Shown: positions 21,335 through 45,034 of the stretch, in pieces
Layout of the letters: every line of letters starts with the position of its first letter
How positions within the stretch are numbered: the stretch's first letter is position 1
Source of the DNA: a virus
Virus genome (UHGV): UHGV-0114729
DNA: 45,034 nucleotides
Reading direction: 5' to 3' (one strand)
Made by a program: the position numbers and the translations under genes
The notes under the pieces: generated by a model
Seen by the model: only the letters and a program-made list of their open reading frames with translations
What the model was told of the DNA's origin: nothing
The model's database searches: none

Positions 21335-23256
21335 TATTCATCTCCAGATAATGCCCGCGCGTAATCCGCCAGGGTCTTGTTATTGTTACGGCTGCCTTCT
21401 TCCTCCAGCAGGCTGGCCAGAAGTGAATCAAGATTTAGCTGCCAGCGGGATATGCTTATACGCAGCGCCGCCAGTGCATAAACAAAGCAATCGAGCGCCT
21501 CATTTCGTCGTTTTTTGCTGTCCCAGACGATTTTCTTACGCCCGTCCACCCATTTTTCAACCTGCTCCTCAGCAGTAAGCTGCTGCGCCTCAGCCAGATC
21601 ATAAATTTCGGGGTTATTGGGAAAATGCACGGCACCGGCAAGAGGTTCACTCCCTTCCGGCTGAAGTGTGAAGCGGTTATAAATCTGCTCCTTTGCGGTA
21701 TCAGTCCCCACTTCCGTCAGATAAACGCCGTTCTTGTTGCGTTTACGCGGCATATTCGCGACAGGCTTACCGTAAACGGAAGCCCCTTTAATCGGGATCA
21801 CGCGAAACAAACCATGCTTTTTTGAGCGATTGTAGACAATGGTGGGGTCAATACCGCCGATATCCCAGCAGATACGGGATACCGACATTTCCACGCCATT
21901 CTTTCGGAGATAGGTTTTGTTAATCGCCTCGTCCACCCTGACGAGGGTCGCTTCATCATCATGACGGCCCATAATGATCTGCCGGTCAATCAGCCAGCTT
22001 TCCTCACCGGGCCCCCATCCCCAGACGCGCATTTCATATCGATCCAGTTGGGAGTCGATCCCGGCTGTCAGATAAGCAACACGCTCCGGTACGGATGCCC
22101 CGAAGAACTCTTTGCGTTCGGCCATGAGCTCCGCGTCAGGCCGTTCACCAATTTTAGGCTCCCATGTTTCGCCCAGAGTGGTGTTCACGAAGGTTTTACG
22201 CTTTCCTGTATCCCCTTTCGTTTTTAGCCAGTCTTTAACGATCTGAACCCAGGTGGTAAACGGGCTGTATGCCGTCCAGATGTGAAACGTCACGCTGTCT
22301 GGCGGGTCGATTTCGGTGCCTGTTGATGAAAACCAGGATAAACCGTCGCGCGTCCAGATCCCGGTGGTGTCGCAGATGTAACGAGCTTCAGTGAAATCCA
22401 GCTCCTGCTGCTTAATGACGCAGGCATTATGTTCACACAGGTAAAAGACGCTGGAGGGTTCGCCCGGTGTCCATTTCAGCCCGAACGGGGTCTCTTTGTC
22501 GCCGAATTTAAGGTACTGCTCTTCACCACAGTGCGGACAGGCAACATGAAAACGCATGAAATGCCCGGACTCGCTGGCAGCACGCTCAATCTGGCAGGTC
22601 CCCTTTGTTTTTGGCGTTGAGCCGCGAATAGATTTGGGCCAGACAGACCCCTCAATACGTTTATCACCCAGGAACGTCGGGGATCCCTCTTTCTCAATAT
22701 CTTCATCGAATGCCGCCAGTTCATCGTAACCGGCGACATCGACCGATTTCTCACGATAGTTTTTCGCCGCTTTACCACCCAGACACCAGAACCCGCGACC
22801 GTTGGAGAAGCGTTTCATACTGAGCGTATTGTCCCGGTGCTTTTTTCCATACCAGGGGGCCAGCGCCAGAAGTGACGGAATATCGCGAATCGTCGGCTCA
22901 ACATGCGACTTCATAAAGTTTTCGGCGTCACCATCAGTAGGCAGCCAGATAAGGGAATTTCGCTGCTTGTGCTGAATAAAATACGCATAAACACCCAGCA
23001 ACATTTTTGAATAGCCAACACGGGCAGACTTAACAACGTTGACCTCACGTATGTAATCGTTACCCATCGCATTCATGATCGCGCGTTGAAACGGCAACGT
23101 TTCCCAGCGCCCTTCCTGGTAGGCCGACTCTTTGGGGAGATAGTAATTATCGTCTGCCCATTCAACCGCCGTTTGCGGCTCAGGTCGGTACAGCGAAAGT
23201 AGACCCGCGCGCGCAGAGTGCTGCAGCCCCTTAACCTGACTGTTCGATATATTCAC
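21334..23256 (-). CDS. A: Terminase large subunit
   Basis: 640 aa, near-identical to lambda gpA as recalled. Confidence 0.97.
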
Positions 23257-23776
23257 TCAGCAACCCCGGTATTATTTCATCCAGCGCAGCTGCTTTGTTC
23301 ATGGCTTTAATGATGTCCTTCTTGAGGAAATCAATATGTCGGTTTTCCAGCTCCGGGAAGCGCCGCTGAACCGACAGAGGAACTCCATCAAGAATGCTGG
23401 CTACTTCTCCGGCCATCCGCGACAGCACGAACGTGCAGAATGCGGTTTCCACCACCTCAGCGGAATCTTTTGCATTTTTTAGTTCCTGGGCATCTGCCTG
23501 CGCTCGGGTGAGGCGGTGACGCTCATAGTCAATCGTACCAGGCTGAAGGTCGGATTCCGATGCAAGACGAAGGTCTTCCACCTCCTTCCGTAATTTCTCA
23601 TTCTCAATCGCCGCGTCGCGTGCGGAATACCATTCGATAGCCGCGGAAGATTCATAGAGGACCTCATTACCTTTTCCACCGCCACGTGCTACAGGCATTC
23701 CCTGATCCTGCCAGTTCTGAATGGTTCGCACGCTGACCCCAAATATTTCAGAAAGACGCTTTTTGTTGACCTCCAT
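23231..23776 (-). CDS. nu1: Terminase small subunit
   Basis: 181 aa, near-identical to lambda Nu1 (MEVNKK..IFG.S.RTIQNWQ.QGMPV). Confidence 0.97.
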   Translation of the reverse strand: MEVNKKRLSEIFGVSVRTIQNWQDQGMPVARGGGKGNEVLYESSAAIEWYSARDAAIENEKLRKEVEDLRLASESDLQPGTIDYERHRLTRAQADAQELKNAKDSAEVVETAFCTFVLSRMAGEVASILDGVPLSVQRRFPELENRHIDFLKKDIIKAMNKAAALDEIIPGLLSEYIEQSG

Positions 23777-23779
23777 AGC

Positions 23780-24000
23780 TCACTCCATACACAAAAACAG
23801 AGAAAGGAAACGCCCTCTGGCTATTTAGCCGTTTTTAAGGCTTATCATTTCCTTTCTTTTCAGGGGGTGTTTACAGTTAAAACAATGAATTAGCGAGAAG
23901 AAGAACGGAAACGGCAAATGCCTGAAAATTTTCATAAATAGCGAGAATCTGCGAGGTCGCCGCCCCGTAAGAAGACGATAAGCTGGAAAGGACCCGAATA
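23780..24000 (-). other. cos: cos site (cosB-cosN-cosQ); cosN 12-nt end at 23954-23965
   Basis: The minus strand contains GGGCGGCGACCT, the lambda cohesive end. It is followed by CGCTATTTATGAAAATTTTC, which matches lambda cosB as recalled. Confidence 0.9.
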
Positions 24001-24260
24001 ATGCATACATCCGCATATATTATGGGCCCACACTCAAGCAAATAACTTGTATATGGTCGTAAAATCCTAATAGCATCTACCAAAGCAAACTATTGAAATT
24101 AACCTGTTCATCATGCTTTAAAATAAACCTATGTAATTAACATTTCCACTTAGTTCCAAACTGTTGTGTGTAGCAACTGACACATAGCCAAGAAATAAAT
24201 ATCGTCGCAACTTATATGTCACCCCACTAAACCTTATCAACAAACTTACACGTTAAACAC

Positions 24261-25148
24261 TTAATCCCTATCTAAAATCCCTTTCTTATAAGCCCTAGCA
24301 AGATAAAGTAGGTTACTTTCCTTATCATCACTATGTAAAATCTCAGCATGCTTATCACTTACTTTAATGAATCCCTTCGCAGCCTGCAGAAGCCCCAAAC
24401 CTGTCACCAACGGATTTTCCGTGTCGCTAACACTAATAATCGCTCCTAAAACAATATTAACCATATCGTCAGAACCTGGCATTTCAAAACTTAAATTGTA
24501 GCGATTTAAGAACCAACCTTTATTAATTTCACTAATTCTGTTTATATCTTCCAAGGAATTACGGAAGCGTTCATAAGCCTTTTTTTGAAAAAGCGGCTCA
24601 TCGGGAGCATAAGCAACATCTTGGTATAAGTCATCCAGATAATTATGGAACGCATCATAATCAACTTTATATTTATGCTTAAACTCAAGTATCTGCTCAG
24701 GATGGATATGTGGTCCGGGAACAGGAAGTGCATCAAAGAGTTCAAGTTTTAAGTTCGTATTTCTATCACTTGTCCCATTCCCCCCTATAAATTCCTCTCC
24801 TATCTGATGTAAATTCCAGTCACGCTGAGGCTCATCCTTCCTTAACTTACTAAGTATCTCAACCTGACGTTTTGGGAACTCTATCGGGTACTGATCGCTA
24901 TTGAATCCGATAGACACTACTGGTCTAGACAAAAAGTCCAAACCAATCAATATATCTTCTCGGGGTAATTGAAAATATATTTCTCTTGAGCCTGGAATTA
25001 CTAATCTATCCCAAAAAAGAGTGTAATAATTCAAATCTTCTTCATTCAACCCTCGCGCTGTCTGGAATCCACCAGTGGGCAAAACTTCCGTCATAACAGG
25101 TGAAGCAACAACACATCTTTCCACAATATTCCCCTTAGTAGTTTTCAC
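24261..25148 (-). CDS. Orphan 295-aa protein, AT-rich moron between Rz and cos (function unknown)
   Basis: Long ORF in a visibly AT-rich tract flanked by AT-rich non-coding DNA. The start is uncertain: the track start is GTG with no clear SD. I recognise no motif with confidence. Confidence 0.7.
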   Translation of the reverse strand: MKTTKGNIVERCVVASPVMTEVLPTGGFQTARGLNEEDLNYYTLFWDRLVIPGSREIYFQLPREDILIGLDFLSRPVVSIGFNSDQYPIEFPKRQVEILSKLRKDEPQRDWNLHQIGEEFIGGNGTSDRNTNLKLELFDALPVPGPHIHPEQILEFKHKYKVDYDAFHNYLDDLYQDVAYAPDEPLFQKKAYERFRNSLEDINRISEINKGWFLNRYNLSFEMPGSDDMVNIVLGAIISVSDTENPLVTGLGLLQAAKGFIKVSDKHAEILHSDDKESNLLYLARAYKKGILDRD

Positions 25149-25398
25149 TCAAAAGCTTAGGAGAAAGTAACTATCACACCCACAAAAAAAAGTAAACGAA
25201 AAATACTGTATACTTGATTTGGATTATGAAACTCTATCAGTCACGCTTGTGGCAATAATAAAAATAATCGACAACATCGGAATACCTAATAAACAATCAT
25301 CTCAAAAATGAAATCTACTAGCATTTTTCAGAACGTCTTTTTCATAAACTAGTACATAGAACAGTTTGACTGACTTCATAAAATTTATTTTTCCCTAG

Positions 25399-25920
25399 TT
25401 AATGAGATGCTCGAACATTTTCTATCTCTCGAATCCCTGCAAAGCGCTTGTTGCCCTTTTCGATAAGTGACAGTAACGGTTTTATCCAAAGCACTGCCTG
25501 ACAATATGTCATTGGGCTGGTGGTAACGGCACGATCATCGGCTGAGTTAAGTTTGTCGGTATCGGTGTGCATGGCGCTGGCACGTAAACGGTACGCGTAT
25601 TCGAGCAGCCCACCAGCAATGTCAGCAGGAACAGGCAGATCACAGGTTTTTTCACGGCGGAGAATCTCCCGGTATTCGATAACTGTTTCTTCAGTACTGG
25701 TGTCGATCAGGGAGTTAAGCCTGATGGCATGTTCGGCAACCTGATTGAATCGATTGAAGTTGAATGCCTGGGTGGCGATCACCTGCCCCTGCATAGAATT
25801 GTCGCTTCGCAGAACGTCGTTATCGCTCTGAAGGCTACTGGCGTCGGAGCAACTCTTAACGAGAGCGACCGAAAGGACAGCAATAACAACAACGCCGATA
25901 AGACCCGGATTAATTTTCAT
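25399..25920 (-). CDS. Rz: i-spanin (Rz-like)
   Basis: N-terminal TM (MKINPGLIGVVVIAVLSVALV) with a periplasmic coiled part. The ATG overlaps the endolysin stop (ATGA). Confidence 0.8.
   Translation of the reverse strand: MKINPGLIGVVVIAVLSVALVKSCSDASSLQSDNDVLRSDNSMQGQVIATQAFNFNRFNQVAEHAIRLNSLIDTSTEETVIEYREILRREKTCDLPVPADIAGGLLEYAYRLRASAMHTDTDKLNSADDRAVTTSPMTYCQAVLWIKPLLSLIEKGNKRFAGIREIENVRASH
25509..25655 (-). CDS. Rz1: o-spanin lipoprotein (Rz1-like) embedded in the +1 frame of Rz
   Basis: My own translation gives (GTG)KKPVICLFLLTLLVGCSNTRTVYVPAPCTPIPTNLTQPMIVPLPPAQ*. It has a lipobox (LLVGC), a Pro-rich mature part and GGGAGA upstream. It is below the ORF-track size cut-off. Confidence 0.75.
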   Translation of the reverse strand: MKKPVICLFLLTLLVGCSNTRTVYVPAPCTPIPTNLTQPMIVPLPPAQ

Positions 25921-26465
25921 TGGTCTAACCCCCAGCACGCCAGTGCGCTTTCCTGGTCCCGTCGCTCAACCTGACCATAGCAGCCATTCTTCTGGCCTTT
26001 GGTTAGACGGCAATCACGGCCACCGTCTTTAATCCACCAGCGGATAGCTTCACAGGCTCCTTTCGTATCGCCAGCATTAATTCGCTTATAGAACGTAGAC
26101 GGGAAACATTTTCCGGGGCCGATGTTATATGGGCAGAAAGAAGCGATACCCGCTTTCTGTGGTTCGGTCAGTGGTACTTTGATATTTCGGTCAACCCACG
26201 CCAGCGCCTTGTCGCGTTCAATGGCGTTTACCTGGGCGCATTTCTCAGCTGACAGCTTCATGCCCTGTACTACTGGCTTGCCATCAACCATTGTTGCACC
26301 ACGGCAAATGGTCCAGAGTCCGCCGCCGTCGCGATATGCTGTCAAGCTGTTACCCTCTTTCTCATCCAGAAACTGATCGAGAATCACGGGTGCGGAAGCC
26401 CCGGCAAGAATCAAACCAACGACCGCTGCGCTCAATTTATTCTTCAGCTTTAGAGACATAGCCAT
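25917..26465 (-). CDS. R: SAR endolysin (T4-lysozyme/GH24 type, R21-like)
   Basis: N-terminal weakly hydrophobic Gly/Ala-rich signal-anchor-release segment (LSAAVVGLILAGASAPVIL). Catalytic E-x8-D-x5-T (EGNSLTAYRDGGGLWT). Confidence 0.9.
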   Translation of the reverse strand: MAMSLKLKNKLSAAVVGLILAGASAPVILDQFLDEKEGNSLTAYRDGGGLWTICRGATMVDGKPVVQGMKLSAEKCAQVNAIERDKALAWVDRNIKVPLTEPQKAGIASFCPYNIGPGKCFPSTFYKRINAGDTKGACEAIRWWIKDGGRDCRLTKGQKNGCYGQVERRDQESALACWGLDQ

Positions 26466-26715
26466 TGCGCCGATCCTCCCGTTCTTTCCAGCGGAAATAC
26501 CAGTTCACTGCACAGGTGATTACCGTGCATGCGATACCGACAATAATTGCCCAGTCGCTCAGGCTTAACCCTGCAATTCTGTCGGCCAACATCCAGGACA
26601 CCTCTTTTGCTGTTTTTGCTGTTTCGGCATATGCCTTCGCTGATACACCGCAGCCGGTCAGCGTGGTGCCTGTTCCATATGAAAGTCTGCTGTAAATGGT
26701 GCTCATTCTGGTCAT
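26437..26715 (-). CDS. S: Pinholin (S21-like), dual-start motif MTRM
   Basis: ..YGTGTTLTGCG.. and SLSDWAIIVGIACTVITCAVNWYFRWKEREDRR parallel phage 21 S as recalled. Paired with a SAR endolysin. Confidence 0.8.
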   Translation of the reverse strand: MTRMSTIYSRLSYGTGTTLTGCGVSAKAYAETAKTAKEVSWMLADRIAGLSLSDWAIIVGIACTVITCAVNWYFRWKEREDRRNGYVSKAEE

Positions 26716-26824
26716 AGCCTCACCTCCGATTCTTCGGATGGCGCTGTGTGTGTATGAAAAGGATCAGGCTTCACTGGCTGGATTTATCAACAAAGCACGT
26801 AGCGGATGATTCCCGGAAGCCTGA

Positions 26825-26851
26825 AATAAAAAAGCCCCGCTATTACGGGGC
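26825..26851 (-). terminator. Rho-independent terminator after the HEPN-like moron
   Basis: Minus strand reads GCCCCG-taatag-CGGGGC followed by TTTTTTATTT. Confidence 0.8.
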
Positions 26852-26865
26852 AGTTAATAGAATTA

Positions 26866-26893
26866 TAAAGTTTAAAAGTTTAAAAGTTTAAAG
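26866..26893. repeat. 8-bp tandem repeat (TAAAAGTT, about 3.5 copies) spanning the stop codon of the 213-aa gene
   Basis: Read directly: taaagtt taaaagtt taaaagtt taaagg. Confidence 0.9.
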
Positions 26894-27521
26894 GAACCAT
26901 AAAGCTACCAGGCTCTGCACCAGCTTCTTTATTTATTTCTTTACGGATTACCTCATTAATCTGAAAAGCCTCATTGTATACTTTTTCTAAGTTAATTGAC
27001 GCCTTCATATTATAGTATGTTTTTTCCTCACAAACATATAACCTTATCGGATATGGCCTAGGGTTGATTGCCTTCCAGTGGGAGATCACAAAATTATAAA
27101 CTGCAATACCATGACCTTTCATCTTCCCTGCTGTAACATCAATGTTTAGCTGATCTAAATACTCATCGAAGTGTTGCAAGGTGTTTCTCACCCTCACGGA
27201 ATTAATTTCCTTAATTTCAATATCTTTTATTTTTTCTTGAAGGTAATTACTTCGCTTAATATGCAATCTGAATTGTTCAGGGGATTCTTCCCTAGTCTGA
27301 TTTTTAGGAACTGCGATTAGTTTCTTGACGTTAGCCGCATCTGAAAGAATACTATTTATTAATATATGAATATTGTAATCAATTTTAAAGTAGTAACCAG
27401 CATCAGGAAGTGGTGTCTCATGAAAGAGCTCTTCACAGCGTGTTTTTATCGAATGAGTTAACAACCATAATTCGTGCAAATAAATAAAATTAAGTTTCAT
27501 TTGCTCAAAGGTTTTTGACAT
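26880..27521 (-). CDS. HEPN-like (Rx4H) 213-aa protein, AbiU2/AbiV-style candidate abortive-infection RNase; AT-rich moron
   Basis: Strong RBS (AAGGAG, 8 nt upstream). Motif VRNTLQHFDEY matches the R-N-x3-H HEPN signature. All-helical-looking, very AT-rich, with its own terminator. Confidence 0.75.
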   Translation of the reverse strand: MSKTFEQMKLNFIYLHELWLLTHSIKTRCEELFHETPLPDAGYYFKIDYNIHILINSILSDAANVKKLIAVPKNQTREESPEQFRLHIKRSNYLQEKIKDIEIKEINSVRVRNTLQHFDEYLDQLNIDVTAGKMKGHGIAVYNFVISHWKAINPRPYPIRLYVCEEKTYYNMKASINLEKVYNEAFQINEVIRKEINKEAGAEPGSFMVPLNF

Positions 27522-27854
27522 AGCGAACTCTCCTTTTCAATAGTCCGCTTTTATAGCATTTACATAAGGGGCCTGTGAATTACTATTCTGTTGCTTACCA
27601 CACTCTCGCAGTGGCCGCGCTCATGCCTTTGAGACCGTAGTCAGGGGTATCTCATGAATCCCTCACCTCTAACCGGAGAACGATTGGCGATCGTTCTGGA
27701 GTACCGGCACACCTCTTCTTTATTAACCCTAACCAGTGTGTGTTGCAGTTCGTACCTGCATCTGGCTCTCATGGAGACTCGGGACCGCATCACGACTGCG
27801 GATTTGCCTATCGGCTGCGGTCTATCCGTTTACTGGTGCATTTTCTTACCCTCC

Positions 27855-27892
27855 AGAAACGCAAAAGCCCCACGGTGTTATCCGCAGGGCTT
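27855..27892 (-). terminator. tR'-like terminator just downstream of the late promoter
   Basis: Minus strand reads AAGCCC...GGGCTTTTGCGTTT. Confidence 0.6.
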
Positions 27893-27923
27893 GAAACGAA
27901 GGCATTAACCCATCGTTGGGACA

Positions 27924-27951
27924 AAATTAACACAGATTCGGGAAAAGTAAA
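27924..27951 (-). promoter_or_regulatory. Candidate late promoter pR' (Q-modified)
   Basis: Minus strand reads TTTACT-N16-TAATTT with a TGt extended -10, immediately downstream of Q. Found by eye only. Confidence 0.45.
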
Positions 27952-27988
27952 TAGCCCGCAACAAAATCGCAGGCTATCGCTACAGGCG

Positions 27989-28819
27989 TTACCGCGTTAT
28001 CTGCTTAAGCTGTTTTTCTGCCCATGCCTCTTCAATATCGAATTTCGTAATCAGCTGATCATAGAACGGTTTAACGGACTTCTTCCACGTATCCAGGCTG
28101 ATTACATCCGTAATCTGGCAAACAGCTGCGTGGGCCTCAGTTGACGGGATGCGCTCATATCCGCGACCGCCACAGCGCTTGCAGGTGCTGAATACTGGAA
28201 CGCCTTGCTGCTTCGTTTCCTTCTGATTCACCGCTTTCCCACGGCCACGGCAATCACTACATGCGCAACTGATGGCTTTTTTCCCTTTGCACTGAGGACA
28301 GAGAACGCGCGTTATCTCTTTTACCTCACGCCTGTTTTGGTGCTGCGAAGGTATCACCTTCAAACCAAACGCTTTTGATGCCTTAATGATTTCTTTTGCA
28401 TGTGCCGGCGTATTGGTTTTCATACTGAATACCTCAGCATCAATAAAGCCCTCACCGTTGCAGCAATCGCACCGTTTTACACTGGCTGCGCTGCGGGAAT
28501 AATCCTCAAATGCGAAGGTGGCCAACTGGTACATCACCTGAGGCTTAACCCCGAAATCCAACTTACGCAGCGCGGCAACCTTGTCACATTTGGTCATCGC
28601 GTACTCAGCCAGCAGTCCGATAGCCCGATCCCGGTCGTTATTGCTTATGCCCATCTTGCCGAGGAAGGCGCTGTAACCCATTGCGGCGCGTTCCTGGGTC
28701 ATGCCCATGGCCGCCATGACATCCGTCCCGGTCAGCGAATCTGAACCAGTGGCGCGCGGAGAGTCGCTAATAAGCGTCGACTTGGCGAAGTGATATTTCA
28801 CGGTGTTTTCGAGGTTCAT
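27989..28819 (-). CDS. Q: Late antiterminator Q (QuuQ-like, with DnaJ-type CxxCxGxG zinc fingers)
   Basis: 276 aa. N-terminus and CPQCKGKK / CSDCRGRG / CKRCGGRG repeats resemble E. coli Qin QuuQ as recalled. Confidence 0.88.
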   Translation of the reverse strand: MNLENTVKYHFAKSTLISDSPRATGSDSLTGTDVMAAMGMTQERAAMGYSAFLGKMGISNNDRDRAIGLLAEYAMTKCDKVAALRKLDFGVKPQVMYQLATFAFEDYSRSAASVKRCDCCNGEGFIDAEVFSMKTNTPAHAKEIIKASKAFGLKVIPSQHQNRREVKEITRVLCPQCKGKKAISCACSDCRGRGKAVNQKETKQQGVPVFSTCKRCGGRGYERIPSTEAHAAVCQITDVISLDTWKKSVKPFYDQLITKFDIEEAWAEKQLKQITR

Positions 28820-39240: not shown

Positions 39241-42150
39241 ATGGAATTTTTCCATCTGATAAAAGCCAGTCAGAAGTCTGGTAAGAAAGATGCAGTGATT
39301 TGGTTCACTGCGAAAAGTGTAGCGCGCGCCAATCTCCAACTCGATGTGGCACTGGAAGAAGCCGGAATTGAAGAAACTGGCCGCGGTAAAGATTATGCCA
39401 AACCAATCCGCACCGATTTCCCGGTATATGACGACCTGCCGGAAGAAGGCGCAGTGGATTACACCTGGTGCGAACGCTACGAACTGCAGAACGATGACCG
39501 CACCTGGCTGCCAAAAGTCACAGCTGAAAACTCTGACGAGAAAACGGCTCAGACCGTTGATAGTCACATAACTACTGAGTCAACGCTGCCAGAAACCGCT
39601 GGCATCACGCTGGACGAACACGACGACGACTCAACCCTCTACCCGGTAGTGCAGATGCCGTTTCGTAAGCAACTGCTTTCCCAGTTCACCGCCGACGAAC
39701 TGCGCCACCACGTAACCCACGAAGAGTACGAAGCTATCGGCGCGCTGGAGATGGACACTGATAACAGTTACGTCCAGAACTTGCTGTTAGCTGCTGAGAA
39801 CTGCCCGGAAGTGAAGGGTTACGACACCAAAGACCTGTGGCGCTACACCGATGCCATTCGCAAAGTGTTCAGCCAGGACAAGCGTCACGAACTCGCGCTG
39901 GTACTCCGTTTCACCAGAATGTGGGCGGCGACTGATTACATTGACCGTGGCATCCTGGCGCGTGAATGGGCCGCCGGTAATCGCATCAGTAGTGTGCAGC
40001 GTACTGATTCCGGCACTAATGCCGACGGCGGTTACGTCACTGACCGTGGACCTGACGCACACCACACACTGGACACTCTCGATTTAGAGATTGCGTGTGC
40101 CCTTCTGCCTATGGACTTCAACCACTTCGAGATCCCGGGCAGCATTCTTCGTCGCGCTAAAGAAATCGTGACCAAAAAAGAAGAACCATGGAAATCATGG
40201 AGCAACATCCTGCGCAATCAGCCAGGCGTTCTGGGTGTTAACCGCACGGCTATTTTTAACCTGGTACGTATCGCACCGGAAAATATTCATTTAACTCCTG
40301 TCGCTCACCTGGAATTTGTTAACCAGACCATGACAGCCGCGTTCAATTCCGCGGTCGAGTTATTGCCGTTGCATGAGGCTGAACCCGCAACACAGGAAAT
40401 TCCCCAACCTGAAGGTAAGGAGTCTCCGCGCAAATCCTTCTGCACTCACGAAGAGAACCTGCAACGCGTGCGTGAAGAAGGAGCACGCCGCCGCGCAGAG
40501 GAAGCGGCAGCACAACAGCAGAAAGTCGAACAAGAACTGGTTAAAAATGTCGGCAACGGAATATTCGACGTTACGGCTTTGCTGCAGAACTCAGCAACTC
40601 ATGGCACGAAAAAGGCTACGGAGACCACCAGCAATGTGCAGGTTCAAGAAACTGTCAGTGATGAAAAACAAGCTGGTGATGAAGTACAGCTAGGCGAAAG
40701 CAGTCTGGAGTCTGGTGAAGAGTCACATCCCGGCCAGAAGGACGATGTAAACCAGAATACGGATTCTGTCGCCAAAAATAGCGATTCTGTAAGCCAAACC
40801 GAACCAGTTGCAGCACAAACCGAGCCAGAAGCGCAATCTGACGAACCAGCTGTTGTTTATCCCGCTTATTTCGAGCCAGGCCGCTATGAAGGGCTGCCAA
40901 ACGAGGTTTACCACGCCGCCAACGGCATCAGCTCAACCCAGGTGAAAGATGCGCGCGTTTCGCTGATGTACTTCAATGCGCGCCACGTAGAGAAAACCAT
41001 CGTCAAAGAGCGCTCAGCGGTGCTGGACATGGGCAACTTGGTGCATGCGCTGGCGTTGCAGCCTGAACTACTGGACGCAGAATTCAGCGTTGAACCGGTG
41101 ATCCCTGAAGGCGCATTCACAACGGCCGCGACCCTGCGCGCCTTTATCGATGAGCACAATGCCAGCCTGCCGGCGCTGCTGTCTGCCGACGACATCAAGG
41201 TGTTACTGGAAGAGTACAACGCCACCCTGCCGCCGCAGGTTCCGCTTGGCGCTAACCTGGAAGAAACGGCACAGAACTATATGGCGCTGCCAGCTGACTT
41301 CCAGCGTATTGATGGTGACCAGAAGCAGACGGCGACGGCAATGAAGGCATGCATTAAAGAGTACAACGCCACCCTGCCGCCGCCGGTTAAAACCAGCGGC
41401 AGCCGTGACGCGCTGCTGGAGCAGTTGGCAATCATCAACCCTGACCTTGTGGCTCAGGAAGCACAGAAACCGGCACCACTGAAAGTGTCCGGTACCAAAG
41501 CAGACATGATCCAGGCCGTGAAGGCAGTCAAACCAGATGCCGTATTTGCCGACGAACTGCTGGATGCCTGGCGCGATAACCCGGAAGGAAAAGTGCTGGT
41601 CACCCGCCAGCAGCTGAGCACCGCGCTGAATATTCAAAAAGCGCTTCTGGCACACCCGACCGCCGGCATGCTGCTGACCCACCCTAGCCGAGCCGTTGAG
41701 GTGAGCTACTTTGGTTTTGACGAGGAGACGGGCTTGGAAGTTCGTGTGCGCCCTGACCTTGAGATCGACCTGGATGGCGTGCGTATAGGTGCAGACCTGA
41801 AAACCATCAGCATGTGGAATGTTAAGCAGGAAAGCCTGCGCGCCAGGCTACACCGGGAAATTATTGAACGTGATTATCACCTGAGCGCGGCTATGTACTG
41901 CGAAACCGCAGCGCTGGATCAGTTCTTCTGGATTTTCGTCAACAAAGACGAGAACTACCACTGGATCGCCATCATCGAGGCATCCGCTGAACTACTGGAG
42001 CTGGGTATGCTCGAGTACCGCAAAGCGATGCGCAATATCGCAACCGGATTCGACACAGGTGAATGGCCAGCGCCAATCACTGCTGACTACACCGACGAAC
42101 TGAACGACTTCGACCTGCGCCGCCTTGAAGCGCTGCGTACTCAGGCATAA
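39241..42150 (+). CDS. recE: RecE-like exodeoxyribonuclease VIII (969 aa; C-terminal PD-(D/E)XK domain)
   Basis: C-terminal region has GLPNEVYHAANGISSTQVK, ..RPD.., and ..GADLKT.. (the D...DxK motif). The long acidic N-terminal extension resembles Rac RecE. Located directly upstream of the annealing protein. Confidence 0.85.
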   Translation: MEFFHLIKASQKSGKKDAVIWFTAKSVARANLQLDVALEEAGIEETGRGKDYAKPIRTDFPVYDDLPEEGAVDYTWCERYELQNDDRTWLPKVTAENSDEKTAQTVDSHITTESTLPETAGITLDEHDDDSTLYPVVQMPFRKQLLSQFTADELRHHVTHEEYEAIGALEMDTDNSYVQNLLLAAENCPEVKGYDTKDLWRYTDAIRKVFSQDKRHELALVLRFTRMWAATDYIDRGILAREWAAGNRISSVQRTDSGTNADGGYVTDRGPDAHHTLDTLDLEIACALLPMDFNHFEIPGSILRRAKEIVTKKEEPWKSWSNILRNQPGVLGVNRTAIFNLVRIAPENIHLTPVAHLEFVNQTMTAAFNSAVELLPLHEAEPATQEIPQPEGKESPRKSFCTHEENLQRVREEGARRRAEEAAAQQQKVEQELVKNVGNGIFDVTALLQNSATHGTKKATETTSNVQVQETVSDEKQAGDEVQLGESSLESGEESHPGQKDDVNQNTDSVAKNSDSVSQTEPVAAQTEPEAQSDEPAVVYPAYFEPGRYEGLPNEVYHAANGISSTQVKDARVSLMYFNARHVEKTIVKERSAVLDMGNLVHALALQPELLDAEFSVEPVIPEGAFTTAATLRAFIDEHNASLPALLSADDIKVLLEEYNATLPPQVPLGANLEETAQNYMALPADFQRIDGDQKQTATAMKACIKEYNATLPPPVKTSGSRDALLEQLAIINPDLVAQEAQKPAPLKVSGTKADMIQAVKAVKPDAVFADELLDAWRDNPEGKVLVTRQQLSTALNIQKALLAHPTAGMLLTHPSRAVEVSYFGFDEETGLEVRVRPDLEIDLDGVRIGADLKTISMWNVKQESLRARLHREIIERDYHLSAAMYCETAALDQFFWIFVNKDENYHWIAIIEASAELLELGMLEYRKAMRNIATGFDTGEWPAPITADYTDELNDFDLRRLEALRTQA

Positions 42151-42155
42151 GGGGA

Positions 42156-43274
42156 ATGATGATGGAAAACACGAATATCGTAACCGCTGAGCAGCAGACT
42201 CCAAACACGATCTCAGCCAGCAATGCCATTTTCAACGTGCAGGCTTTAACCCAGCTTCAGTCTGTCGCCGGGTTGATGGCACAGGCAGCCGTAACGGTGC
42301 CTGAGCACCTCCGCGGCAATCCGGCAGACTGCATGGCCATCATCATGCAGGCGATGCAGTGGGGTATGAACCCTTACGCCGTGGCGCAAAAGACGCACCT
42401 GGTTAACGGTGTCCTGGGATACGAAGCGCAACTGGTTAATGCGGTGATCTCCAGCTCAAACGCCATCGTTGGCCGCTTTCACTATGAGTACGAGGGCGAC
42501 TGGTCGAAATGTGCCAGCAGCCGCGAGATAACCGTTAAAAAGCCTGCGAAAGGTGGCGGGACGTACGACAAGAAAGAAATGGTACGCGGTTGGGAAAGTG
42601 CTGATGAACAAGGACTGTCGGTACGGGTAGGTGCCGTTATTCGCGGTGAAAGTGATATCACCTGGGGAGAGCCTGTTTTCCTCTCCAGCGTAATCACACG
42701 TAATTCTCCACTTTGGGTATCAAACCCGAAACAGCAGATCGCTTATCTGGCACTCAAATACTGGGCGCGCCTGTATTGCCCTGCAGTTGTTCTTGGTGTG
42801 TACACCCCTGATGAGATTGAACAGCGCACAGAAAAAGAGATCAACCCAACGCCGCAACGCGTTAGCCTGGCTGATATCTCAGGTGACACCGTCACAACCA
42901 CGCAAAGCGCACAGGAATCGTCGGTAAATGTCGACTCTCTTGCCGATGATTTCCGCGAACGCATCGAATCTGCTCAGGACGTGGATAGCGCCAAATCGCT
43001 GCGTGCCGACATTGAAACGGCGAAAGCTACGCTGGGATCCGCACTATTCACCGAGCTGAAAAACAAAGCCGTAAAGCGTTATTACCTAGTGGATGCACGC
43101 AACAAGGTTGAGGAGGCTATTAAATCCCTGCCCCAGCCCGACGAGCCGCATGCAGCCGAACGGTTCGCTGAAGCCGAGCGCATGCTTGCATCTTCAAAGC
43201 GTCACTTAGGCGATGAACTGCACGATCAATTCAGCATCACCCTGGCGGATATGAAACCGGAATACGTGGCCTGA
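42156..43274 (+). CDS. recT: RecT/Red-beta family single-strand annealing protein
   Basis: AIIMQAMQWGMNPY...GVLGYEAQL and WVSNPKQQIAYLALKYWARLY parallel lambda Bet motifs. Confidence 0.82.
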   Translation: MMMENTNIVTAEQQTPNTISASNAIFNVQALTQLQSVAGLMAQAAVTVPEHLRGNPADCMAIIMQAMQWGMNPYAVAQKTHLVNGVLGYEAQLVNAVISSSNAIVGRFHYEYEGDWSKCASSREITVKKPAKGGGTYDKKEMVRGWESADEQGLSVRVGAVIRGESDITWGEPVFLSSVITRNSPLWVSNPKQQIAYLALKYWARLYCPAVVLGVYTPDEIEQRTEKEINPTPQRVSLADISGDTVTTTQSAQESSVNVDSLADDFRERIESAQDVDSAKSLRADIETAKATLGSALFTELKNKAVKRYYLVDARNKVEEAIKSLPQPDEPHAAERFAEAERMLASSKRHLGDELHDQFSITLADMKPEYVA

Positions 43275-43596: not shown

Positions 43597-43794
43597 ATGG
43601 ATGATATTTTGGTAACGTCAGACCTGACCAGTCGCTACAAAATTTCACGCAAAACCCTTTGGTCATGGCAAAGTGCAGACACAATGCCTCGGGGCTTCGT
43701 ATGCCCGTTCCCACCCCCTGACTGGCCCGGCAACCCTAACCGCTGGCGCTCTGAGTCAATCAAAGAGTGGGAGGATAAAAAGAAGATAAATTAA
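43597..43794 (+). CDS. xis: AlpA/Xis-type excisionase (MerR-like HTH)
   Basis: [20 protein letters not shown] is typical of the AlpA/excisionase HTH. It converges on int with a 4-nt overlap. Confidence 0.75.
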
Positions 43795-44984
43795 CTGAAG
43801 GGCTCTCCGATGATCTCTTCAAGATGGCTCTGCCAAACGCGGAGCCAGTGTTTCTGATCATCGATATAGTCATGAAGGTTGTAATGCGCCATAACCCCCA
43901 CCATCTGATGCCCGAGCAGCTTTTCAATTACGTGCGGCGGGCAACCTAACTCAGAGAGATTTGTGGCTATCGTCCGCCTCATATCATGAAGCGACCACTC
44001 TGCCATACCTGTTCCATTCCAAATAGAACGGGCGTAATTGGATGCCACAGGTGAATGAACGGGCGAATCTTTGATCCCGCCATCAATTTTACGTTGTGAA
44101 GTCACCAGGTGATTGGTGTTTATTTTCTTGAGGTGATTTCTGACCAGGTTAACGGCGGCGTCTGAGAGTCCCCTTCTAATATGTACCCGAGTTTTATAAC
44201 TGCCCGCAGGCACGACCCACTCATTATCATCCAATCGAAACCATGATCTCTCACTAAGTCGAATCTCAGCCGTACGGCATCCGGTAAGCATAATAAATTT
44301 CACCAGGAAAACGGACTCTATCGACATATGGCTTTTCAACCACTGATAGATTTTGCGCAGATCGTCATCGTCCATCCTGCGAGTTCTCTTTTTAGGCTTT
44401 TGCCCGACATCAGATGGCAGTAATCCCTCGAGTGGGTTTGAGGCGATCACACTTCTGTTAACGCAGAACCTAAACGCCCGTTTGCACAGCGAAAGCATGT
44501 AATGAGCCATCACCCTGCTTTCTATAGAATCGAAGACGTTGATCCAGTGCATTTTCGCTGTGTTATCGACTTTGACATTCTTCATCGGTTCGGCGATATG
44601 TTTCTCAAACACCTGGCGATAGTAATCGACTTTAACTAGCCCGTTAGCGATACAGTGCCTTTCAATCCAGTAATTGAACGCTTCGGCAACGGACATCGCT
44701 TCCTGTCGGGTCTGCTTATCCAGCTTCACCTGCTCTCGCGGATCCAGTCCCTCAGTTAACCAGTTTCTGAATTGTTGGCGACGCTCTCTTGCCTGGGTGA
44801 TACTCATTGCAGGATAATCACCAACATTGAGTTTTACCGCTTTACCGGCCCAGCGATACCGATAGAAAAATGATATTTTTCCGGCCTGGCTGATTCTGGC
44901 GTTGAGCCCGTGCGAATCAGAAATAATCTCGATATCATCTCTTTTCTTGCCGAGCGCCTTCCTGAGCTTTGTGTCGGTGATCAT
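43791..44984 (-). CDS. int: Tyrosine integrase (P4/CP4-57-like, N-terminal DUF4102-type arm-binding domain)
   Basis: The C-terminal catalytic region contains R (TGCRTAEI), H..R (HDMRRT) and ..GH...VMAHY (Tyr). The likely start [10 protein letters not shown] is at 44984; the track ORF extends to a GTG at 45029. Confidence 0.92.
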
Positions 44985-45034
44985 TGAATGGGTACACATT
45001 TTTGTTTTTGGGTACACAAAAGTGTACACAAAGT

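Follow-up and report, generated by a model that had tools for sequence, protein, structure and literature searches.

A DUF6236-family gene in a horizontally mobile cargo cassette between Rz and cos of a lambdoid prophage

Phage lambda and the K-12 prophage DLP12 carry bor (borD in DLP12) as accessory cargo between the spanin gene Rz and the cohesive-end site, cos; this gene lies on the opposite strand and codes for a small lipoprotein, Bor. Here, we analyze the same interval in the virus genome UHGV-0114729, a stretch of 45,034 nucleotides (nt) that we refer to as the window, where a gene of the DUF6236 family (24261-25124, minus strand) lies in what we take, from the lambda map, to be the slot of bor. 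In contrast to Bor, the window protein has DUF6236 as its sole Pfam match and carries no lipoprotein or transmembrane signal. Phage phi80 offers a second comparison: its Rz-to-cos interval holds rha, taiEcA, atiEcA, and other genes, and the slot upstream of its packaging module contains the validated defense gene taiEcA (PMC11364771). The lysogen expresses TaiEcA, which acts non-enzymatically and blocks other lambdoid phages (PMC11364771). Like taiEcA, the DUF6236 gene is a single cargo gene in the lambdoid Rz-to-cos slot, upstream of the packaging module. However, taiEcA runs antisense to the late operon and has an anti-Tai gene at its side, whereas the DUF6236 gene points in the direction of the late operon and lacks a conserved partner. 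Homology between the two was not supported by hhalign of a profile of 106 DUF6236 sequences against TaiEcA (phi80 orf63; probability 0.1%, E = 0.45), and no homology to phi80 orf66 was found either.

A literature search retrieved no paper text naming DUF6236 or PF19749; the family appears in the supplementary tables of DefensePredictor (Science 2026, PMC13092281). There, WP_126688523.1 is listed as a "putative novel defense gene" with a mean log-odds of 6.8. This accession is the 295-amino acid (aa) reading of the window gene in Escherichia coli 65COLEC.

A complete lambdoid prophage makes up the window; it reads on the minus strand, and all of its features given below lie on that strand. On one side, the slot is bounded by an Rz-like spanin gene (25399-25938), the last gene of the lysis cassette as judged from its position after holin and lysozyme and from the annotation of phage mEp237, which is 97% identical here. 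On the other side lies the cosN cohesive-end sequence GGGCGGCGACCT (23954-23965), presumably the lambda cohesive end, which has a single exact match in the window with 0.02 expected by chance. Beyond it follows the gene for the small terminase subunit Nu1 (23231-23776; Pfam Phage_Nu1, E = 1.2e-93). The placement of the gene between Rz and cos, made in an earlier note on this DNA from the letters alone, is therefore correct, and so is its description as an AT-rich open reading frame (ORF) bracketed by AT-rich noncoding DNA. The GC content is 0.31-0.40 over about 24000-25400 vs. 0.49-0.54 in the flanking lysis and terminase genes. About 250 nt of noncoding DNA lie on either side of the ORF, whereas the neighboring genes are tightly packed, with overlapping holin/lysozyme, lysozyme/Rz, and Nu1/large terminase (TerL) pairs. 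The upstream gap (25149-25398) measures 250 nt, or 274 nt if counted to the corrected start codon described below, and contains no ORF of at least 40 aa. The sole ORF in the downstream gap (24000-24260) comprises 41 aa and has a TTG start.

Comparison with related phages delimits the inserted DNA precisely. Cassette-specific sequence extends over about 23997-25420, and homology to mEp237 breaks off exactly at both points. The identity of 97% to mEp237 covers 25421-28300 (Q, a 213-aa ORF, holin, lysozyme, and Rz), and 76% identity is found over the cos region (23778-23996). Homology resumes at 23996, directly beyond the AT-rich downstream spacer (23997-24260), which is part of the cassette. Homology to the nohD region of K-12 DLP12 ends at about 24007. 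Between Rz and cos, mEp237 carries four small ORFs that are unrelated to the DUF6236 cassette. The cassette is present in only 5 of 5426 complete E. coli genomes. It is 100% identical to the copy in E. coli W619, whereas the adjoining cos-Nu1 DNA shows 57 differences in 300 nt, and the identical protein was found behind several different Q and holin modules. Taken together, the exchange in mEp237, the rarity of the cassette, the mosaic joint relative to W619, and the varied Q and holin modules indicate mobile cargo in a recombination hotspot. Two properties of a moron in the sense of Hendrix and Juhala were found: replacement or absence between collinear phages (mEp237; 5 of 5426 genomes) and deviant base composition, in the window as well as in nearly all of 58 viral homologue loci (see below). 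We conclude that the feature is a 1.4-kb horizontally mobile cargo cassette with one stand-alone gene in the Rz-to-cos slot of a lambdoid prophage. The earlier proposal of an accessory gene in a moron slot is thereby supported, and the cargo of phi80 provides a further example of variability at this site.

Close copies of the gene differ by 0-1 nucleotides, with one difference between the coding sequences of the window and E. coli 65COLEC, which is too few for a ratio of nonsynonymous to synonymous substitution rates. A sharp mosaic joint was also seen near cos, where the DNA at 23700-23999 shows 57-68 differences to two loci with close copies (L001 and L002). An inverted repeat of 16 nt with 88% complementarity (24157-24172 and 25353-25368) brackets the DUF6236 ORF. 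It is probably not meaningful and was left uninterpreted, because by our estimate chance alone would produce about 0.5 such pairs in 1.9 kb.

The mechanically derived ORF (24261-25148; 295 aa, GTG start) was recovered as described earlier, and the doubt then expressed about its start was justified. Homologues begin eight codons inside this ORF, and the aligned start position reads M-K/E-R-G-V-V in 16 of 16 homologues (alignment A2). A Shine-Dalgarno-like AAGGGG is located at 25136-25131, with a spacing of 6 nt before the GTG at 25124. The 287-aa form is also called by RefSeq in E. coli W619 and by gene calls on eight other assemblies. Because homologue starts, the AAGGGG motif, and the independent gene calls agree, translation most likely starts at GTG 25124 and yields a product of 287 aa (about 33 kDa). 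The resulting gene (24261-25124) is supported by Pfam, PHROG, homologue alignment, and RefSeq, and the eight additional codons of the mechanical ORF (25125-25148), which contain AAGGGG, are probably untranslated. In the index of a public assembly collection, 268 blocks contain the exact 287-aa sequence, which is present across several Enterobacteriaceae genera; the corresponding NCBI entry is "MULTISPECIES: DUF6236 family protein [Enterobacteriaceae]".

Profile searches, proposed with the earlier note as a check, assigned the protein to Pfam DUF6236 (PF19749) with E = 7e-16 and a score of 58.7 bits (cut-off 26.2) that spans residues 19-287 in the 295-aa ORF, and to phrog_23128 with E = 1e-25. 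The earlier remark that some motifs faintly recall a domain family of unknown function was accurate, as LFWD, LPVPG, EFK, and FHNYL correspond to the most conserved columns of DUF6236. The window protein shares with the family a match over its whole length, the LYWD, LPVP, and FK motifs, and a stand-alone length of about 285 aa. It differs in that its match begins at position 58 of the 324 model positions, leaving the first 57 unmatched. The family itself has no assigned function. Searches of the window protein against NCBIfam and PADLOC models gave no match. All 106 aligned relatives also match DUF6236; a SEC-C motif found by Pfam in one of them is irrelevant to the DUF6236 core.

The family is large and widespread. 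A full HMMER scan of 1.84 billion cluster representatives yielded 882 clusters at 50% identity (E ≤ 1e-3), and among the matches listed nearly all are stand-alone proteins of 280-300 aa. The relatives come from Gammaproteobacteria, Campylobacterota, Nitrospirota, Bacteroidota, Acidobacteriota, and others, and include free-living marine and sediment bacteria. Among 50,697 phage records searched by tblastn, the only matches were two Vibrio prophages. Many matches align only over residues 1-200, and the C-terminal part diverges rapidly. Seventeen columns are at least 90% conserved among the 106 sequences (R3, G4, L36-Y37-W38-D39, P44, P68, W103, L133-P134, P136, F148-K149, Y167, D175, and Y274), and all 17 positions are present in the window protein. 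Aromatic residues, prolines, and leucines predominate, next to R3, D39, K149, and D175, and no catalytic signature was recognized among them. The 90% identity cluster of the window protein includes gene calls shortened to 229, 184, and 116 aa.

An AlphaFold2 model built on the 106-sequence alignment (predicted local distance difference test score 80, predicted template modeling score 0.81) suggests a confident fold for residues 1-200, with a predicted N-terminal beta-rich alpha/beta domain followed by three long helices, and residues 230-287 are poorly predicted. A Foldseek search of the model against the PDB and viral folds gave no significant match, and profile sequence searches of the PDB gave chance matches only (E ≥ 0.46). 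The structure search suggested earlier gave no known relative for the confidently modeled fold. The best Foldseek matches, Csm6 and Cad1, raised the idea of a CARF-like sensor with a ligand-sensing N-terminal domain, which we rejected because they are not significant (E ≥ 0.027, TM-score about 0.2).

The C-terminal 95 residues are rich in Gly, Ala, Ser, and Thr and contain an uncharged stretch with a median length of 19 aa; the hydrophobic maximum falls within residues 220-258 in 88 of the 106 members. We also considered a constitutive transmembrane or membrane-hairpin effector of the 2TM or SLATT type. On a crude scale, the lowest insertion free energy summed over 19 residues amounts to 9.6 kcal/mol in the window protein, with a family median of 5.6, and the same scale gives 1.2 for holin and Rz, 1.6 for lysozyme, 5.9 for Nu1, and 8.1 for TerL. 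The window protein is not called a membrane protein because its sum, like the family median, sits with those of the soluble proteins and not with the membrane segments of holin, Rz, and lysozyme, and the effector type was rejected. Weak matches to SLATT_6 or 2TM models occur in single relatives only (E about 0.005).

To place the family in its genomic surroundings, we analyzed 58 of the 63 IMG/VR viral loci from the HMMER scan. In nearly all of them, the gene has a GC content of 0.33-0.44 against flanks of 0.50-0.60, a difference of 10-20 GC points. In pooled Pfam counts of the viral loci, Rz, endolysin, and holin families are enriched among the two closest ORFs upstream, and families of the small and large terminase and HNH among the two closest ORFs downstream. 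Homologues at a greater distance (30-55% identity) occupy the lysis-to-terminase junction of four terminase types, including that of the window: Nu1/GpA (window), DUF1441/GpA, HNH/Terminase_4, and Terminase_2/3. Homologues also follow tail-fiber genes at the end of Klebsiella and Vibrio prophages, and one each was found at the edge of a P2-like prophage, adjoining a KAP NTPase (nucleoside triphosphatase) gene, and in an integrase/H-NS/VgrG/Abi_alpha island. In non-enteric genomes, it is mostly a solitary gene among housekeeping genes.

Neighbor families are common to at most 6 of the 31 DUF6236 lineages, and those that recur are core genes of phages. The gene therefore works alone and not as half of a two-gene system. 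A candidate partner, a 486-aa ORF behind the gene in Kosakonia-type prophages, was rejected for the same reason, as no neighbor cluster spans more than 6 of the 31 lineages. In a Kosakonia prophage of the HNH/Terminase_4 type (locus L004, 11004-13036), this ORF and one of 196 aa follow the DUF6236 gene and have no Pfam matches; in the viral loci L024, L044, L049, L052, L053, and L060, it is likewise followed by an ORF of the same size. Because these ORFs recur within few lineages only, they probably belong to the phage backbone in question and are not partners. The 65COLEC prophage (locus L002, NZ_CP070914.1; 11998-13630, 246-3319) with the same cassette additionally carries a NADAR protein and the phosphoribosyltransferase-like WP_000097610.1; the latter, paired with a NADAR-family protein, constitutes DS-32, a defense system validated by DefensePredictor (PMC13092281). 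This prophage is truncated after Nu1 and abuts mcrBC.

Regarding expression, the gene is co-oriented with the late operon in the window, and the same holds for all annotated prophage loci that have late genes on their flanks. For this reason, we expect late transcription by read-through of Q-modified polymerase; expression in the lysogen is an assumption on our part. The AT-rich upstream spacer (25149-25398; GC about 0.31-0.36) contains a weak promoter-like block as its best candidate, TTTACT (25196-25191) and GATAGT (25175-25170) separated by 15 nt, with a TG at 25178-25177. Upstream of the homologue in locus L015, which has 71% protein identity, this block is conserved in part. An Rfam scan of both spacers gave no match at E ≤ 1.

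The gene can thus be described as a conserved, stand-alone DUF6236 member that is carried as swappable cargo in the Rz-cos slot, an ordinary and as yet uncharacterized moron for which a role in defense is plausible and unproven. As a joint explanation, we tentatively favor a role in conflict between phages, combined with late read-through and action by binding, and give it somewhat less than an even chance. The gene would be transcribed by read-through of the Q-antiterminated late operon, with weak additional transcription in the lysogen possibly arising from its own AT-rich upstream region. The protein would exclude, or defend against, other phages that infect the lysogen, probably temperate ones, and would do so by binding a phage or host protein and not by enzymatic or constitutive membrane activity. 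It would have to be harmless to the late development of its own phage, because the gene would be cotranscribed with the late genes. The wider proposal that DUF6236 is a new, widespread, single-gene, prophage-borne antiphage family with a fold outside the PDB appears doubtful to us; its members would bind a phage component noncatalytically, and their specificity would be for phages (such as temperate ones) that were possibly poorly represented in the published panel described next.

Several observations weigh against a defensive role and against the expression it would require. In the DefensePredictor study, WP_097421955.1, an E. coli DUF6236 protein of 289 aa with a log-odds of 8.6, was not defensive against 24 phages in MG1655 (PMC13092281, Table S6). 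It was predicted as a defense gene like WP_126688523.1, but it is another family member than the window allele. The 94 candidates of that study were cloned with their predicted native promoter region, 42 of the 94 were validated, and according to its authors, failures could stem from the phage panel, from the level of expression, or from the boundaries chosen for a system (PMC13092281). The notion of a single-protein defense or exclusion factor, put forward in the earlier note, has accordingly gained a published prediction for the same family and met a negative result for the tested relative. A PADLOC v2.0.0 search with the 106 relatives gave only weak single-member matches, none of them through the DUF6236 core; the strongest, to PDC-S12 and E2, were discarded as they trace to an N-terminal extension of one protein (P0092, residues 21-54) outside that core. 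Homologues were expected to occur in prophage hotspots or defense islands. The former was observed in the form of prophage cargo slots, but outside prophages no association with recognizable defense islands was seen around homologues, apart from the one island with Abi_alpha. On the coding strand of the upstream spacer, a consensus scan found no sigma-70-like site at its threshold of at least 9 of 12 consensus matches, and no terminator-like site was found adjacent to the gene on either side. For the independent transcription from its own upstream control region that was proposed earlier, the weak TTTACT-N15-GATAGT block is the best candidate. Finally, we infer binding instead of catalysis only from the absence of motifs.

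The same observations can be read differently. The negative assay on the homologue and the lack of a detectable promoter or terminator around the gene would fit a late-expressed accessory of the phage's own lytic cycle, active in lysis or its timing, packaging, or host takeover and transcribed from pR' under Q antitermination only. The position directly after the spanin in the backbones of four terminase types, the recurrence of lysis genes upstream, and the uniform co-orientation with late genes in annotated prophages point in the same direction, and we regard this explanation as unlikely but worth keeping in mind. Such an accessory would hardly be as sporadic as 5 in 5426 E. coli genomes, be replaced by unrelated cargo in the near-identical lysis-cos frame of mEp237, deviate so strongly in GC content, or occur after tail fibers, at a P2-like edge, and solitary among housekeeping genes in non-enteric genomes. 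The window protein also lacks the transmembrane segment usual in holin and spanin partners. Composition and mobility of the moron type are what one would expect of a lysogenic-conversion factor unrelated to defense, contributing to envelope, stress, or colonization traits in the manner of lambda bor and lom. Occupation of the bor slot (presumed from the lambda map and from the homology to DLP12 nohD), the wide taxonomic spread with free-living marine and sediment bacteria, and again the negative assay agree with this possibility, to which we attach a rather low probability. No signal peptide, lipobox, or transmembrane segment was found in the window protein, which makes a Bor-like surface role unlikely, and the protein shows no similarity to any characterized host-fitness family.

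A protein that shields the phage or its progeny from host defenses would likewise read as negative in a defense assay. A stand-alone gene without catalytic motifs and with a fast-diverging C-terminal part suits such a counter-defense function, and the co-orientation would imply its transcription with the late operon, but anti-defense genes of temperate phages are usually early genes. Most known inhibitors are moreover smaller than 287 aa, and the solitary chromosomal copies in nonphage contexts and the copy in the Abi_alpha island fit cargo acting on the host side better; we consider this explanation improbable. Least of all do we expect a functionless or purely selfish passenger sequence. The lack of a known function and the shortened gene calls in the 90% identity cluster would be in line with it, yet the full-length frame is kept over 882 divergent clusters from many phyla, 17 columns are at least 90% conserved, and the exact protein is distributed among several genera of the Enterobacteriaceae.

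Sequence, family, and defense hypothesis have all been recorded before, and the sole experiment, on a relative, is negative. With the hypothesis in print and this experiment negative, the finding adds little at present, and the gene represents a reasonable candidate for testing and no surprise. New are the corrected start codon, the exact boundaries of the cassette, the observation that the family recurs at the junction of lysis and packaging genes in several unrelated backbones, the lack of a partner gene, and a confident fold model without a known relative. If the proposed role in conflict between phages is true, DUF6236 would represent a compact, partner-less immune family with a fold not in the PDB, comprising 882 clusters in many bacterial phyla, and the role of the lysis-to-packaging junction as a hotspot for cargo would extend to several unrelated backbones of temperate phages. 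If it is not true, the gene would provide a test case in which a machine-learning predictor and the genomic context point to defense and the gene serves the phage or host otherwise.

The remaining map of the window follows the lambdoid order, with the integrase at 43791-45029, RecE/RecT at 39241-43274, and the Q antiterminator at 27989-28819; on the other side of the slot, Nu1 is followed by the large terminase and then by head and tail genes. The lysis cassette (25399-26715) comprises a P21/HP1-type holin (26437-26715), a lysozyme (25917-26465), and the Rz-like spanin, which has no Pfam match and embeds an Rz1-like ORF (25509-25655). It resembles the pinholin/signal-anchor-release endolysin type, as the holin has matches to the holin families of P21 S and HP1, and an N-terminal hydrophobic stretch (residues 11-29) is present in the lysozyme. 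A second AT-rich orphan ORF (26880-27521; 213 aa, GC 0.30-0.38) lies between Q and holin and marks another moron slot. It has no Pfam, PHROG, or NCBIfam match and gave only a weak PADLOC match to CasR (E = 0.004). The ORF corresponds to gp56 of mEp237 and is replaced by a 189-aa ORF or absent in related prophages.

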